From IMG/VR virus record IMGVR_UViG_2657245015_000003: a DNA stretch of 7,482 bases; one strand, given 5' to 3'. This document shows positions 2,279-6,520 of this stretch, in pieces. The notes beneath the pieces are model-generated. The model did no database searches and had not been told where the DNA came from. It saw only the letters and a list, made by a program, of their open reading frames with translations. This DNA is from a virus. Lineage: Duplodnaviria > Heunggongvirae > Uroviricota > Caudoviricetes. Each line of letters starts with the position of its first letter. Positions within the stretch are counted from its first letter, which is position 1. A program made the position numbers and the translations under genes.

Positions 2279-2801
2279 ACAAACCCCTGGCAGACATTTG
2301 TTTATCTGCAAAGTAATATTGATATTGCTGACGATACGCATGCTTGAAAGCAATAGCTTTTTCTATAAGCTCGTCAGTCTCACGTTCCACAACAGCTGGA
2401 TCCGCAAAAAGCAGCCCGGACTCCACCACATCGCCATATTCTTTGTTTAATCCGGCGATCATGTACGTAATGCTTTTTCCATCACTGATCTCACGATACA
2501 ACCTGAAATCACTAATTCGGATAGCCTCCATAATTGCCGGAATCAGCGCCGTGAATTTTTTCCGCTTATCCCTGGTGTCGATAGCTTTCCAGCGTTCGAA
2601 TATCTTCACCCGGTTAACGCCCAGCGCCCGTTGATCAACCTCGCCATCATTAAACGTGACGCGTTGAACATCGATGTTCGGGCGTTCTTTCAGAGCCCAG
2701 AATGCTTCCGTGATTAATATCGTCGCTTGCTCCTGTGTCATTCCTGGTCGACATACCCAGGCATCCAGAGCCTCACAAACCTGTTCAGGGGTGATTTTCA
2801 T
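2250..2801 (-). CDS. YdaT-family protein (CII-position gene of the Cro-side operon)
   Basis: 183-aa ORF immediately downstream of, and overlapping by 17 nt, the Cro-like gene. It starts MKI and contains ALIPAIMEAIRISDFRL, reminiscent of the recalled K-12 YdaT (MKI...KLIPAILAILPRELRHRL). Longer than the 140 aa I recall for K-12 YdaT. Confidence 0.6.
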   Translation of the reverse strand: MKITPEQVCEALDAWVCRPGMTQEQATILITEAFWALKERPNIDVQRVTFNDGEVDQRALGVNRVKIFERWKAIDTRDKRKKFTALIPAIMEAIRISDFRLYREISDGKSITYMIAGLNKEYGDVVESGLLFADPAVVERETDELIEKAIAFKHAYRQQYQYYFADKQMSARGLYEYRCTTMG

Positions 2802-3012
2802 TGTTCAACCGCCCCGCCCGCTTTGCCTTACGATATTCGTCATAAACTTTGGGGTCGTACTGAAGTTCCCCGCCGGATGCCTCCTGTAGACGCATCGCGC
2901 GACCTTCAGGAACCAGTTTCCCCCATGCAGCAACGCTTGCCAGCCTAACGCCTGCGGCATTGGCAAGCTTTGTTTTGCTGCCAAAAAACGCTATAGCATC
3001 AATTTTCAACAT
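2785..3012 (-). CDS. dicC: Cro-position small regulator, DicC/YdaS-like
   Basis: 75-aa ORF divergent from the dicA-like gene. AAGGAG lies 6 nt upstream of the ATG at 3012. The motif FGSKTKLANAAGVRLASV is HTH-like. Position and size match dicC of Qin. Confidence 0.7.
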   Translation of the reverse strand: MLKIDAIAFFGSKTKLANAAGVRLASVAAWGKLVPEGRAMRLQEASGGELQYDPKVYDEYRKAKRAGRLNNENHP

Positions 3013-3088
3013 ATCGAACTCCTTAGATTTTCCTAAGGAAACTAGATCGTAGAGAAACCTAAGTCAAGAAAAATTAGAATTACCTAAT
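3013..3088. promoter_or_regulatory. Divergent promoter/operator region between the dicC-like and dicA-like genes
   Basis: 76-bp AT-rich intergenic region. It holds a perfect inverted repeat CCTTAG-N6-CTAAGG (3021..3038) and further CCTAAG/CCTAAT half-site copies at 3058..3063 and 3083..3088. Confidence 0.5.
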
Positions 3089-3496
3089 ATGAAAAACGAA
3101 ACCTTCGGTGCTCGCCTCTTATACAGGCGTAAAAAATTAAAACTGTCTCAGGCCGCATTAGGTAAGCTGGTCAAAGTGGCTCACGTAACAATTTCTCAAT
3201 GGGAAAGAGATGAAACACAGCCAGCGGGGAAGAGATTATTCGCACTGAGCCAGGCGCTTCAGTGCTCGCCGACTTGGCTTCTTTTTGGAGATGAAGATAA
3301 GCAACCAGGCGAACCGATCCCAGATAATCAGCCAGTTAATCTGACAGAAGATCAAAAAGAGTTGCTTCAACTGTTCGACGCACTGCCTGAGTCAGAGCAA
3401 AAGGCTCTGTTGTCAGAGATGCGTGCTCGAGTTGAGAATTTCAACAAACTTTTTGAAGAACTACTCAAAGCTCGCAAAAGAAGCGCAAATAAATAA
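3089..3496 (+). CDS. dicA: DicA-like HTH (XRE/CI-type) prophage repressor
   Basis: 135 aa. The N-terminal region ARLLYRRKKLKLSQAALGKLVKVAHVTISQWERDETQPAGKRLFALSQALQCSPTWLLFGDEDKQP and the C-terminal EMRARVENFNKLFEELLKARKR closely resemble the recalled E. coli DicA. No obvious SD upstream. Confidence 0.85.
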   Translation: MKNETFGARLLYRRKKLKLSQAALGKLVKVAHVTISQWERDETQPAGKRLFALSQALQCSPTWLLFGDEDKQPGEPIPDNQPVNLTEDQKELLQLFDALPESEQKALLSEMRARVENFNKLFEELLKARKRSANK

Positions 3497-3569
3497 CCCC
3501 CTCCCTTTTTTTCGCCACTCTCTGTAATAAAAAGCATAAACTTTCAAATGCTTGTGTTTTTTACATCAA

Positions 3570-3630
3570 AAAACTTAGGTTTTTCTACACAAAAAGCTTG
3601 ACCACAATTCTTAGGTTATTCTAAATTCTA
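3570..3630 (+). promoter_or_regulatory. dicB-operon promoter (PL analogue) with flanking DicA-type operator repeats
   Basis: Candidate -35 TTGACC (3598..3603) and -10 CTAAAT (3621..3626) with 17-bp spacing. Two copies of CTTAGGTT(T/A)TTCTA (3574..3587 and 3609..3622) bracket the -35, echoing the CCTTAG/CTAAGG half-sites of the dicA/dicC intergenic region. Confidence 0.45.
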
Positions 3631-3703
3631 CTCATCAAGACACCGCACGGTGTTCTCAGCAAACAGTTCCGCTACCCTGGCGTTAAGGGGAAATGAGGTC
3701 AGC

Positions 3704-3859
3704 ATGGATACTATCGATCTTGGCAACAACGAATCTCTGGTATGCGGCGTGTTTCCCAACCAGGACGGCACGTTCACCGCGATGACGTATACCAAAAGCA
3801 AAACGTTTAAAACCGAAAATGGTGCCCGTCGCTGGCTGGAAAGAAACTCAGGTGAGTGA
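3704..3859 (+). CDS. ydfA: YdfA-like small protein (51 aa)
   Basis: ATG at 3704 with GAGGT upstream gives MDTIDLGNNESLVCGVFPNQDGTFTAMTYTKSKTFKTENGARRWLERNSGE. Length and position (first gene after the promoter downstream of dicA) match ydfA of Qin. The ORF-track N-terminal extension from 3650 is unlikely. Confidence 0.65.
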   Translation: MDTIDLGNNESLVCGVFPNQDGTFTAMTYTKSKTFKTENGARRWLERNSGE

Positions 3860-3860
3860 T

Positions 3861-3989
3861 ATGGATTTCGACACAATCATGGAAAAGGCTTACGAAGAAT
3901 ACTTCGATGGTCTTGCCGAAGGCGAAGAAACTCTCAGCTTCAACGAATTTAAACAGGCGCTTTCCAGTTCGGCAAAATCTAACGGCTGA
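3861..3989 (+). CDS. ydfB: YdfB-like small protein (42 aa)
   Basis: Below the ORF-track size cutoff; found by hand translation as MDFDTIMEKAYEEYFDGLAEGEETLSFNEFKQALSSSAKSNG. AGGTGA lies upstream and the start is 1 nt after the ydfA-like stop. Size and order match ydfB. Confidence 0.6.
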   Translation: MDFDTIMEKAYEEYFDGLAEGEETLSFNEFKQALSSSAKSNG

Positions 3990-4018
3990 TAAGCGAAACA
4001 GCACCGCGAGGAATCAGT

Positions 4019-4237
4019 ATGCAGAAACGAGAACCCGTCATCATCGCGCCAGACTATACCGATGATGAACTTTATGAGTGGATGCGCCAGAAAATTAATG
4101 CAGTGCAGGATCTGAAATGGGCCAATGAAGCCAGGACTAAGCAGGCTGAAAATCTGTCCGCTCTGGAGCAGGATATCACCAGGCTGGAAAAAGCAGCGGC
4201 ATTAAGCATTGCCAGAATGGTTACATACCCACGTTAA
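4019..4237 (+). CDS. ydfC: YdfC-like small protein (72 aa)
   Basis: 72-aa ORF with GAGGAA upstream. Size and order match ydfC of the dicB operon. Confidence 0.65.
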   Translation: MQKREPVIIAPDYTDDELYEWMRQKINAVQDLKWANEARTKQAENLSALEQDITRLEKAAALSIARMVTYPR

Positions 4238-4259
4238 TAGCTAACCAACGAGGCTAATA

Positions 4260-4661
4260 ATGGAATTTAAAGATTTACCAATGCCATTCCAGGAAATGGC
4301 AGCGAATGTGGTTCGCTCTCAACTGGCGACTCTTGACCTGAGTACTGTAGAAAAGGAAACCATCGATACTATATCCGGTAACGTGCGTCGTGCCTTTATA
4401 GGTCTGTATGAAGAGAAGCGCCTATTCGGCGGACAGAATTCGCCTGAAAACAAGAATCAAGCAAATGATGAGAAGCTGAAACACATTATCGCCTTACTTT
4501 TGGAAGACGCAAAACGTCTACAGCAACTGGAACCAAATGCAGGCACAGAGGCCCGCATTTGGATTGCCATGAAATCACTCAAATGTGAAAGCAGTGATTA
4601 TTTCAAAACAACAATTAAAACTACTCAACTTTCGGGAGAGCTACTGAAGAAATTGCCATAA
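4260..4661 (+). CDS. Hypothetical protein (133 aa), unknown function, co-oriented with the dicB-type operon
   Basis: ATG 22 nt after the ydfC-like stop, with GAGG 6 nt upstream. Codon pattern is coding-like. No recognisable motif. Lies in an AT-rich segment. Confidence 0.5.
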   Translation: MEFKDLPMPFQEMAANVVRSQLATLDLSTVEKETIDTISGNVRRAFIGLYEEKRLFGGQNSPENKNQANDEKLKHIIALLLEDAKRLQQLEPNAGTEARIWIAMKSLKCESSDYFKTTIKTTQLSGELLKKLP

Positions 4662-4899
4662 GAGCATGGTCTTTCTCTTGTTCTGCAAGATGAGCATTAA
4701 TACCTGGTATGGTTTTTTCAAATTTATCTATCTGTTGAATAACAACTTCGCGGTATACGTTTGTTTTTGTACCACCAAGCGCAGCCGTTAATGCAGAAAG
4801 CATATTTAGTATCATATCAGTGCGATATGAAAGAATCCTGATAGCTTCATCTTGTTTTTCAATAATAGATTGCAGGGCCTCAATTTGCTTTTTATCCAT
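4621..4899 (-). CDS. Hypothetical protein (92 aa from ATG at 4899; 105 aa if the GTG at 4938 is used), antisense to the dicB-type operon
   Basis: Strong RBS: AGGAGGG lies 4 nt upstream of the ATG at 4899. AT-rich coding-like codon usage (MDKKQIEALQSIIEKQDEAIRIL...). Its 3' end overlaps the convergent 133-aa ORF by 41 nt. Confidence 0.5.
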   Translation of the reverse strand: MDKKQIEALQSIIEKQDEAIRILSYRTDMILNMLSALTAALGGTKTNVYREVVIQQIDKFEKTIPGINAHLAEQEKDHALMAISSVALPKVE

Positions 4900-5231
4900 T
4901 TCACCCTCCTGAGGGTTGGTAATTAAGGAGTTCTCCACGGGTCAGGTGGAGTGCGTGCGCCGGACACGGGTGAACATCCGGCACTGACAGTTTACTGAAA
5001 GGATATGTCCCTGAAAAGTCAGGGCATAACGCGAAAGCGCACGGCGAAATTGGTCTCTCTGTACGGTGTCGTTAAATTTAGTTCGACCGTGCGCTTCCGG
5101 TTGTGGCACTCCGCGAAATGGCGCGGCGGTAAGTATGGCGGGGTTATTCCTTCCCCCGTTGAGGACACCGGGTTGTCAGGTTGACCATACGCTTAAGTGA
5201 CAACTCCGCTGCAACGCCCTCTGTTATCAAT

Positions 5232-5289
5232 TTTCTGGTGACTTTTGGCGGTATCAGTTCTACTCCGTGACTGCTCTGCCGCCCTTTTT
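5232..5289 (+). ncRNA. dicF: DicF small regulatory RNA with 3' intrinsic terminator
   Basis: TTTCTGGTGACTTTTGGCGGTATCAGTTCTACTCCGTGACTGCTCTGCCGCCCTTTTT matches my recollection of DicF at nearly every position. The 3' end is a GGCGG...CCGCC stem followed by a T-run. Lies between ydfC and dicB, as in Qin. Boundaries approximate. Confidence 0.8.
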
Positions 5290-5571
5290 AAAGTGAATTT
5301 TGTGATGCGGTGAATGCGGCTCAGCGCACGCGGAACAGTTAAAACCAAAAACAGTGTTATGGGTGGATTCTCTGTATCCGGCGTTAATTGTTAACTGGTT
5401 AACGTCACCTGGAGGCACCAGGCACCGCATCAACAAAGTTCACTTCGGTGATGAAAGGTAGAGAAAATGTTGAATGTAGCTATTGAAAACCAGAACGGGT
5501 GGAATTATAGTGCACCTGCACCTCATAAAACGGGTGCCGGGCGTGGAAACCCGAAATCATTCACGGCGCAT

Positions 5572-5594
5572 AACCGCGCTCAGGCGGTTTTTTT
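5572..5594 (+). terminator. Candidate intrinsic terminator upstream of the Rha-like gene
   Basis: AACCGC-GCTCAG-GCGGTT hairpin followed by a run of 7 T on the plus strand. Confidence 0.4.
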
Positions 5595-5763
5595 ATGCGT
5601 TAAGCACAGCCACATTCGCATTATGGTGGGGCGTGCAGGGCAGCCGCAAGGCTGGCCGGGTTCCGTGATGACCGGTATTTCCACCCCTGTACGTCTCACC
5701 ACCCTTATGGTCGTGGAAAACCTCGGTGGTGAGTTAATCAAATTCATCGCGGAGGCTGCCATC

Positions 5764-6321
5764 ATGGCTACTATCCTTACCCTTTCTCACCCTGACGTAA
5801 CCATCGAAAATGGTCGCGCTGTCACTACGTCTGTTGCGATCGCCGAGTTCTTTGGCAAACGCCACGAACGAGTGTTGGATAAAATTCGCAATCTGGACTG
5901 TTCAGCAAAATTCACTGAGCACAATTTTGTGTCGAGCGAATACACCGACTCAACCGGGCGCAAACTCCCAATGTACCAAATCACCAAAAACGGCTTCGTT
6001 TTCCTGGTGATGGGCTTCACTGGCAAAAAAGCCGCTGCATTTAAAGAGGCATACATTGCTGAGTTCGACCGCATGGAAGCTGAACTGCGCCAGAATAACG
6101 CCCCGTCTCCCGACAAAATGATTCACGGGGACGGACGCACCCTGGTTATCCGTCTCGACGAACACGGCAATATCAAATTCACTGAAACCGTTCCTGACGG
6201 CGCAATGGTCTGCACCCTGGATACCTTCCTGTTTTATCTGGAGCAACAAGGCTGGACTCTTGTAAACCGGAGCGCAATTAAAAATATGACTGTGGAGCAA
6301 TTGCTAAAAATTCATTGTTGA
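5764..6321 (+). CDS. Rha-family phage regulatory protein
   Basis: The ORF-track frame runs 5467..6321, but the ATG at 5764 has GGAGG 8 nt upstream. The terminator-like hairpin at 5572..5594 lies inside the upstream extension, whose translation looks non-protein-like. From 5764, the segment VTTSVAIAEFFGKRHERVLDKIRNL...KLPMYQITKNGFVFLVMGFTGKKAAAFKEAYIAEFDRME matches the Rha-domain pattern as I recall it. Confidence 0.6.
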   Translation: MATILTLSHPDVTIENGRAVTTSVAIAEFFGKRHERVLDKIRNLDCSAKFTEHNFVSSEYTDSTGRKLPMYQITKNGFVFLVMGFTGKKAAAFKEAYIAEFDRMEAELRQNNAPSPDKMIHGDGRTLVIRLDEHGNIKFTETVPDGAMVCTLDTFLFYLEQQGWTLVNRSAIKNMTVEQLLKIHC

Positions 6322-6331
6322 GGACGCGATA

Positions 6332-6520
6332 ATGGAAACGTCACTACCAAACGTTAATACGTCTGACGGGTGCTTTAATATTGGTGTTCTGCTCAGTAAC
6401 AGGGATTTCACCGAGGATGCAATCAATATGAGAAAATATGAACCCTACCTGCTGAATGACAATTCCATACTCTCCAGAATTGCCCTTCTTAAACTCGGTA
6501 TTTTCGGAGAGTGGCGATGA
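6332..6520 (+). CDS. dicB: DicB-like cell-division inhibitor (62 aa)
   Basis: METSLPNVNTSDGCFNIGVLLSNRDFTEDAINMRK... closely resembles the recalled K-12 DicB N-terminus (M.TLLPNVNTSEGCFEIGV...FTEDAINKRK). 62 aa. GAGGA upstream. Lies downstream of dicF. Confidence 0.8.
   Translation: METSLPNVNTSDGCFNIGVLLSNRDFTEDAINMRKYEPYLLNDNSILSRIALLKLGIFGEWR

Follow-up and report, generated by a model that had tools for sequence, protein, structure and literature searches.

The window (the whole stretch of DNA analysed here, 7482 bp long) is a segment of a lambdoid, PPompW-like prophage. Its positions 2785-4257 are 99.8% identical to the genome of E. coli 55989 (positions 1-1473 of the query 2785-4300), and PPompW-type and Stx2a prophages are about 93% identical to it over 70% of its length. 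In PPompW itself a rem gene is annotated. On the minus strand, to the left of a dicA-like gene, the window carries replication genes, a YdaT-like gene and then a dicC-like gene, which is annotated as DicC or as a Cro/CI family regulator in the matching genomes. The dicA-like gene is followed on the plus strand by ydfA, ydfB, ydfC, the DicF RNA, a dicB-like gene whose product is 64% identical to K-12 DicB and, finally, a ydfD-like gene (Table 1).

In the DicA-like protein, Pfam identifies an HTH_3 domain at residues 12-64 and otherwise helix-turn-helix families only, all of them within residues 6-72. The closest solved structure is the N-terminal domain of the P22 repressor C2 (PDB 1ADR and 2R1J, E of about 1e-21), to which the protein aligns residue for residue until the alignment stops at residue 69. 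A C-terminal S24 peptidase or RecA-stimulated cleavage domain is absent from its 135 residues according to Pfam, and the protein falls outside the LexA-like autocleavable class of repressors; the DicA of Qin is likewise devoid of a cleavage domain (PMC10448788). The gene is followed by a likely terminator, and by eye the relatives of this locus retain a hairpin at the same position with differing stem sequences. Further downstream, the leader of ydfA (3632-3706) shows no significant overall structure (folding z=0.36), just a small local hairpin.

Table 1. Coordinates, strand and basis of the features discussed, numbered from the first letter of the window
Feature	Position	Strand	Sequence or size	Basis and remarks
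Immunity cassette	about 2916..3630	.		sliding identity vs K-12 Qin (NC_000913)
dicC-like gene, Cro analogue	2785..3012	-	75 aa	ORF list; Pfam P22_Cro, E=2.5e-13
O1	3022-3037		CTTAG-ATTTTC-CTAAG	0 mismatches; counterpart of Qin Oc and P22 OR1
PdicC -10 (putative)	3039..3044	-	TAGTTT	17 nt from -35; same place as Qin TATCTT
O2	3048-3063		CGTAG-AGAAAC-CTAAG	1 mismatch; counterpart of Qin Om and P22 OR2
PdicC -35 (predicted)	3062..3067	-	TTGACT	read from sequence; AGTCAA at operator edge also in Qin and P22
O3	3073-3088		ATTAG-AATTAC-CTAAT	2 mismatches, itself a perfect dyad; counterpart of Qin Oa and P22 OR3
PdicA -10 (putative)	3075..3080	+	TAGAAT	within O3; P22 has TAAGAT at the same position
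dicA-like repressor gene	3089..3496	+	135 aa	N-terminal helix-turn-helix; 63% identity to K-12 Qin DicA
dicA terminator (likely)	3528..3563	+		A/U-flanked hairpin and U-run; fold -9.3 kcal/mol, z=-3.6; inverted repeat I4
OLa	3574-3589		CTTAG-GTTTTT-CTACA	2 mismatches; counterpart of P22 OL2
PdicB -35	3598..3603	+	TTGACC	promoter scan; identical hexamer in Qin dicBp and P22 PL
OLb	3610-3625		CTTAG-GTTATT-CTAAA	1 mismatch; counterpart of P22 OL1
PdicB -10	3622..3627	+	TAAATT	promoter scan; TAAATT at the same place in P22 PL
ydfA	from 3704	+
ydfB	from 3861	+
ydfC	from 4019	+
DicF RNA	5233-5284	+
dicB-like gene	6332-6520	+

The initial annotation had read a palindrome in the spacer between dicC and dicA, made of CCTTAG (3021-3026), six nucleotides and CTAAGG (3033-3038), and it is found exactly there. 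Reduced to the pattern CTTAG-N6-CTAAG with at most 2 mismatches, it has exactly five matches when both strands of the 7482-bp window are searched. All five matches fall within the 283 bp of non-coding DNA that flank dicA, that is the 76-bp dicC/dicA spacer (OR) and the 207 bp downstream of dicA (OL), and the remaining 7.2 kb of the window hold no match at this threshold. The claim that one operator family occupies two regions on either side of dicA is thus borne out by five dyads, three in OR and two in OL. The arms of O1 are perfect over 7 bp (TCCTTAG/CTAAGGA, within 3020-3039), O3 adjoins the ATG of dicA, and the starts of O1, O2 and O3 are 26 and 25 bp apart. The additional CCTAAG (3058-3063) and CCTAAT (3083-3088), formerly described as extra copies, are present, but each is the right half of a dyad (O2 and O3, respectively) and not a free half-site. 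Similarly, the two copies of CTTAGGTT(T/A)TTCTA reported downstream of dicA do exist (CTTAGGTTTTTCTA at 3574-3587 and CTTAGGTTATTCTA at 3610-3623) and bracket the TTGACC hexamer at 3598-3603 as described, but their reading as direct repeats has to be revised, each of them being part of a whole imperfect dyad, OLa and OLb respectively.

An independent repeat finder placed O1/OLa/OLb first among the direct families and put O2-OLa (94% over 16 nt), O3-OLb (88% over 17 nt) and O2-OLb at the head of the inverted pairs, so that the OR sites are closer to the OL sites when read on the minus strand. Read along the adjacent early promoter, the oriented consensus common to all five dyads is CTTAGGTTWTTCTAA. 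A third OL operator was not found, neither as a further match with at most 2 mismatches in 3497-3703 nor, by eye, as anything dyad-like one operator spacing upstream or downstream of the OL sites. The DNA upstream of OLa is that of the dicA terminator hairpin.

The dyads are closely interlocked with the predicted promoters. O2 fills the spacer of PdicC and overlaps its -35 element by 2 nt, and O1 lies just downstream of the -10 element, over the predicted start near 3032; in Qin the start of dicC was mapped by 5'RACE (PMC3441716). No Shine-Dalgarno sequence precedes the ATG of dicA, which, together with the homology to P22, suggests that the dicA mRNA is probably nearly leaderless, with a start around 3086-3089. 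A consensus promoter scan missed the -10 element of PdicC as well as PdicA, both of which are weak matches placed by homology. On the other side of the gene, PdicB has a spacer of 18 nt and a predicted start near 3634; OLb occupies this spacer and overlaps the -10 element, and 8 nt separate the end of OLa from the -35 element further downstream. Another promoter-like match, inside dicA (3410-3439), comes with neither an operator nor a conservation argument and was treated as a chance occurrence.

Counted over the whole window, the five matches are weak evidence, since 1.86 are expected and 10 of 200 shuffles attain the same number. This window-wide count only marginally above chance, the AT-richness of both intergenic regions (32% and 40% G+C, respectively) and the resemblance of the minus-strand OR sites to the OL sites beyond the dyad cores all speak for a reading in which no protein binds the shared motif, which would instead be a likeness between two AT-rich paralogous promoters, PdicC and PdicB, or a chance match. 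Local statistics point in the opposite direction: when each intergenic region is shuffled 20,000 times with its dinucleotides preserved, the three sites of OR have P=1e-4 and the two sites of OL P=0.005, the latter being an independent test since the pattern was defined from the OR palindrome only. In a complete 43.8-kb PPompW prophage that encodes an identical DicA, five of the six matches are the operators described here, against 9.4 matches expected genome-wide from shuffles. The non-protein reading is moreover hard to reconcile with the conserved columns, which are the dyad cores and not the -35 flanks, with a half-site that covaries with the helix-turn-helix in both regions, as detailed below, and with the DicA binding of the homologous Qin site (PMC3441716). 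It is already disfavoured, and we give it hardly any probability.

The conservation data come from loci of the same immunity, namely 80 IMG/VR loci and several genome loci whose DicA is 79-100% identical to that of the window and differs little or not at all in the recognition region. In the 24 distinct OR and 47 distinct OL sequences, 34 of the 40 TTAG/CTAA core columns show no variation, whereas only 10 of the 69 columns elsewhere in the two regions are invariant (Fisher P of 1e-3 for OR and 3e-8 for OL). The conservation of the motif in related prophages, on which the initial annotation depended, is therefore observed, the cores being kept while the DNA between the sites drifts. Around PdicB, the bases free to vary are the six between the -35 element and OLb and those just past the -10 element, a freedom that OLb itself does not share. 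Part of the conservation of O3 and OLb could reflect promoter constraint, because both overlap -10 elements. O2 lies in a promoter spacer, the sequence of which is normally unconstrained, and despite this location the 24 distinct relatives show little or no variation in its CGTAG and CCTAAG; O3 is kept down to 79% DicA identity.

These patterns bear on whether all five dyads are used by the repressor. O1 and OLb could be the only working DicA operators, with O2, O3 and OLa as relics or as sites for DicC only, given that these three are 1-2 bases off the consensus, that all immunity types have A or T as the outer base of O3, as expected if this site were tuned away from the repressor, and that, of the three singly cloned Qin operators, DicA bound Oc but not Om or Oa (PMC3441716). 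Single-site assays, however, miss cooperative binding, and down to 79% DicA identity the conservation of O2, O3 and OLa is as strong as that of O1 and OLb; the position of O2 in a promoter spacer offers no other reason for its invariance, and the half-site of OLa changes with the immunity type. A restriction of DicA to O1 and OLb is accordingly improbable in our view, and the reading in which the five dyads are operators is retained.

The operators and the proteins predicted to bind them also form a unit of inheritance. Identity to K-12 Qin is at least 90% in 2540-2915, falls to 45-65% in 2916-3630 and rises to at least 95% from about 3632. The diverged block contains the first ~32 codons of dicC, OR, dicA, the terminator, OLa, the promoter and OLb; its right end falls a few bases past the -10 element of PdicB, and it encloses both operator sets and both DNA-binding regions. 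The joint exchange of a repressor, a Cro protein and both operator sets is the classical hallmark of lambdoid immunity regions. Of 5426 complete E. coli genomes, 751 (~14%) carry this cassette as a unit, O157:H7 and O104-lineage strains among them. The operator specificity of Qin, GTTAGY as in Oc (TTGTTAGTCATAACTAACAA), is not that of the window, where the half-sites read CTTAGR. Such a difference suggests a probably different immunity specificity and, since the whole 2916-3630 block is just 45-65% identical to Qin, the allele of the window probably represents an immunity type of its own.

When one genome per species was scanned, ~35 further DicA-family loci emerged in Enterobacterales, with dyads at the same offsets (~-67 and ~-17 from the ATG, ~+40 and ~+76 from the stop codon). 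Three combinations of helix-turn-helix and half-site can be distinguished: SQAALGK..AHVTISQWE with CTTAGR in the window DicA, TQR..SHVSVSQWE with GTTAGY in Qin, and TQR..[AS]HVTISQWE with GTTAGR in other Enterobacterales. Within each DicA type the half-sites of OR and OL agree at both variable positions, and that of OLa changes along with the immunity type. In window-type loci, G at half-site position 1 occurs in only 2 of 42 OR and 1 of 30 OL half-sites, and C at this position was never seen in the tabulated TQR-type loci. The phiES15 group, with a helix 3 of the form ..FKWEN.., has no TTAG-N6-CTAA and displays a CTAAC-N4-GTTAG dyad on both sides of the gene. The exact 16-mer of OLb leads to the same DicA type: 46 of the 80 IMG/VR matches listed have an SQAALGK-type DicA just upstream and none of these 80 has another DicA type there, the rest being ~30 unrelated AT-rich contigs without promoter context, or truncated loci. 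As there are few independent lineages, with about one switch for each of the two half-site positions, this covariation is supportive of a recognition code and not a proof of it.

One could speculate further that the specificity of the DicA family is set by two separately read half-site positions, combined with one fixed geometry for pairwise cooperative binding, an idea that we regard as tentative and rather doubtful in its full form. The outer half-site base, C or G, may track the N-terminus of helix 2 (SQAA versus TQRx), and the first spacer base, purine or pyrimidine, may track helix-3 residues 34-35 (T-I versus S-V). The distance between neighbouring sites is 25-26 bp in OR and 35-36 bp in OL, a difference of exactly one helical turn that suggests a single cooperative geometry.

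Comparison with Qin, drawing on the K-12 sequence and more recent papers, reveals the same gene order (dicC, dicA, then a promoter followed by ydfABC-DicF-dicB), the same 135-aa repressor family, dyads with a TTAG-N6-CTAA core at five equivalent positions, the same spacings of 25-26 bp in OR and 35-36 bp in OL, and the same -35 hexamers, TTGACT and TTGACC. The two loci differ in the helix-turn-helix of their repressor (TQRSLAK..SHVSVSQWE in Qin against SQAALGK..AHVTISQWE in the window), in the quality of O2, which is a far better dyad than Qin Om, and in the presence of extra genes between ydfC and dicB in the operon of the window. In Qin, Oc binds DicA in vivo and mediates both the repression of dicC and the activation of dicA, and no in vivo binding of DicA was detected to Om or Oa when each was tested alone (PMC3441716). 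Qin DicA also represses dicBp, and operators have been described in both intergenic regions (PMC10448788). The dicBp region of Qin is said to have three operators (PMC10448788), in contrast to the two found in the OL of the window.

The annotated record of P22 (NC_002371) provides a second reference, its immC region having three OR operators, of which OR3 adjoins the ATG of c2, and a PRM 5' end 4 nt before this ATG. As in the window, a TTGACT -35 element overlaps OR2, with AGTCAA inside the annotated PR promoter, and PL combines TTGACC...TAAATT with an OL1 that covers the spacer and the -10 element. OL2 of P22 lies ~7 nt upstream of the -35 element and 35 bp from OL1, and OLa is likewise located upstream. 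The DicC-like protein belongs to the P22_Cro family, and the N-terminal domain of DicA aligns with C2. P22 differs in its operators (TTAAG-N4-CTTAA, an 18-bp dyad, against CTTAG-N6-CTAAG), in an annotated OL3, whereas no third OL site is visible in the window, and in its repressor, C2 having 216 aa and a C-terminal LexA-like cleavage domain and DicA only 135 aa with an unrelated C-terminus (PMC10448788). The logic is also that of lambda, where CI and Cro share tripartite operators between divergent promoters, a second operator set lies at the leftward early promoter beyond the repressor gene, and the repressor mRNA is leaderless; the lambda operators have no detectable sequence relationship with those of the window, however, and the lambda repressor is RecA-cleavable, unlike DicA, which has no such domain. 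The region thus combines divergent repressor and Cro genes with three dyads between them, a second operator set over an outward-reading PL-like promoter, homology to C2, DicA and P22 Cro, and the co-inheritance and covariation of its operators. Taken together, this comparative sequence evidence suggests that the five dyads most likely represent the operators of a P22-immC/Qin-type immunity switch in a lambdoid, PPompW-like prophage.

For the allele of the window, genetic data are available from E. coli O157:H7. The dicA primers of that study (PMC6915034) match the window exactly at 3089-3110 and 3474-3496, and the homology arm of its dicC deletion (PMC6915034) matches 3012-3062 with 3 mismatches. 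Overexpression of DicA decreased dicB, and overexpression of DicC decreased dicA and increased dicB, in this genetic study that left the operators unmapped (PMC6915034). The operator sequences of the window allele were not found in print in the literature searched. The increase of dicB under DicC overexpression in O157:H7 (PMC6915034) might be taken to mean that the OL sites are mainly sites of the Cro-like DicC and that DicA acts on dicB only indirectly, via dicC, as might the ChIP-seq peaks of Qin DicC, which lie on both sides of dicA and share the TTNG...CNAA palindrome (motif TT(A/C/T)G...C(G/A/T)AA, PMC11430063). This increase is, however, explained by the lost expression of dicA, OLb sits over the spacer and the -10 element in the classic position of a repressor site, and a dicBp-lacZ fusion outside the native locus is strongly repressed by Qin DicA (PMC10448788). 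An indirect action of DicA is accordingly very unlikely. The proposal of the initial annotation that one repressor has two operator sets agrees with the layout, the conservation, the covariation, the shared cassette and the published work on Qin and O157:H7, but it needs amending in a further respect: these sites very likely serve the Cro-like DicC too and are therefore not operators for a single protein.

Assuming a direct action of DicA on both operator sets, a mechanism can be proposed, in which we infer the occupancy of the sites, the cooperativity, the transcription starts and the protein preference of each site. Dimers of the 135-aa DicA-like protein would recognise CTTAGR half-sites arranged as CTTAG-N6-CTAAG, adjacent sites being bound cooperatively. 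On O1 and O2, DicA would cover the start, the spacer and the -35 element of PdicC and silence dicC together with the replication genes downstream of it. Because Om and Oa of Qin are unbound singly (PMC3441716), DicA may bind O2 and O3 only cooperatively, or not at all. Located over the -10 element and the start of a weak, nearly leaderless dicA promoter, O3 would serve in autoregulation and would also be the site at which DicC shuts off dicA. On the other side, OLb over the spacer and -10 element of PdicB, together with OLa upstream of the -35 element, would allow DicA to block the ydfABC-DicF-dicB operon. The Cro-like DicC would read the same sites with other preferences, resulting in a bistable switch. 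Derepression would proceed through an antirepressor (Rem-like) or through DicC, and not through RecA, since DicA has no autocleavage domain.

The immunity architecture of P22 and Qin has been known since the 1980s, and conceptually the present locus adds nothing new, being a further allele of a well-known arrangement. It provides exact coordinates of the putative operators for a cassette that is common in pathogenic E. coli and that governs the cell-division inhibitors DicF and DicB. If the specificity of the DicA family were indeed set by two half-site positions, PPompW-type and Qin-type prophages would be mutually insulated when residing in the same cell. With several DicA-type prophages per strain, cross-regulation among them becomes a testable question.

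The relationship of the window with the K-12 cryptic prophage Qin is mosaic, with sharp junctions at 2916, within dicC past about codon 32, and at 3630, a few bases 3' of the -10 element of PdicB, the rightward promoter downstream of dicA. Identity to Qin is 45-65% between these junctions and at least 90-95% beyond them.

At the start of dicA, the last base of O3, the predicted operator nearest the gene, directly precedes the start codon, and the operator contains TAGAAT (3075-3080). No Shine-Dalgarno sequence was found 5' of the ATG (3073-3091), and the leader of the dicA mRNA should be of 0-3 nt, given the homology with the annotated start of PRM, the repressor promoter of phage P22. At the other end of the gene, a hairpin stands between the stop codon and OLa, the first predicted operator 3' of dicA (-9.3 kcal/mol, z=-3.6); relatives retain a hairpin at this position with different stem sequences. 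This hairpin probably terminates dicA transcription, and it could act bidirectionally. A promoter-like match within dicA has no operator near it and is probably due to chance.

The ydfA leader shares about 95-100% identity with that of Qin. Both of its stems are seemingly kept in more distant relatives with changed bases (e.g. CCGC...GCGG); folded whole, the leader gives no significant structure (z=0.36). After 4257 the window and E. coli 55989 part company, and two ORFs, neither of which has a Pfam match, look like accessory genes inserted between ydfC and DicF.

Further 3', Rfam matches to isrK and a C4 antisense RNA lie immediately upstream of a long ORF or within its 5' part. C-terminally this ORF consists of a Rha-family regulator domain; its N-terminal part gives an "Ash" match that overlaps the RNA genes. 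This group resembles an antisense-controlled module of antirepressor type, like immI of P1/P7. It is located between DicF and dicB, on the same strand as the DicA-repressed operon.

Features of the dicA to dicB region (window coordinates)
Feature	Position	Strand	Description
Promoter-like match	3410-3439		within dicA; TTGTCA, 18-nt spacer, GAGAAT
Hairpin	3528-3563		A-run and U-run flanks
ydfA leader stems	3639-3654 and 3675-3690		small perfect inverted repeat ACACCG-CA-CGGTGT; second stem CCCT...AGGG around GGCGTTA
133-aa ORF	4260-4661	+	
105-aa ORF	4621-4938	-	
DicF RNA	5233-5284		
isrK	5518-5594		3' of DicF
C4 antisense RNA	5619-5706		3' of DicF
RNA genes and long ORF	5233-5706 and 5467-6321		resembles an immI-like module

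Over the whole 43.8-kb prophage PPompW_EH2246 (L166), which encodes an identical DicA, the operator dyad pattern has 1 match away from the five operators versus ~9 expected from shuffles, a hint that the phage avoids having spurious look-alikes of its operators elsewhere in its genome. This sixth match (6333-6348) is in a CDS adjoining the operators and its right half is poor. The distant, phiES15-type DicA subgroup (L085 and L104) carries a helix 3 with ..SVFKWEN.. and a different dyad, CTAAC-N4-GTTAG. Since this dyad is present both 5' and 3' of the repressor gene, the two-region operator logic, as predicted from these sequences, holds across the DicA family.
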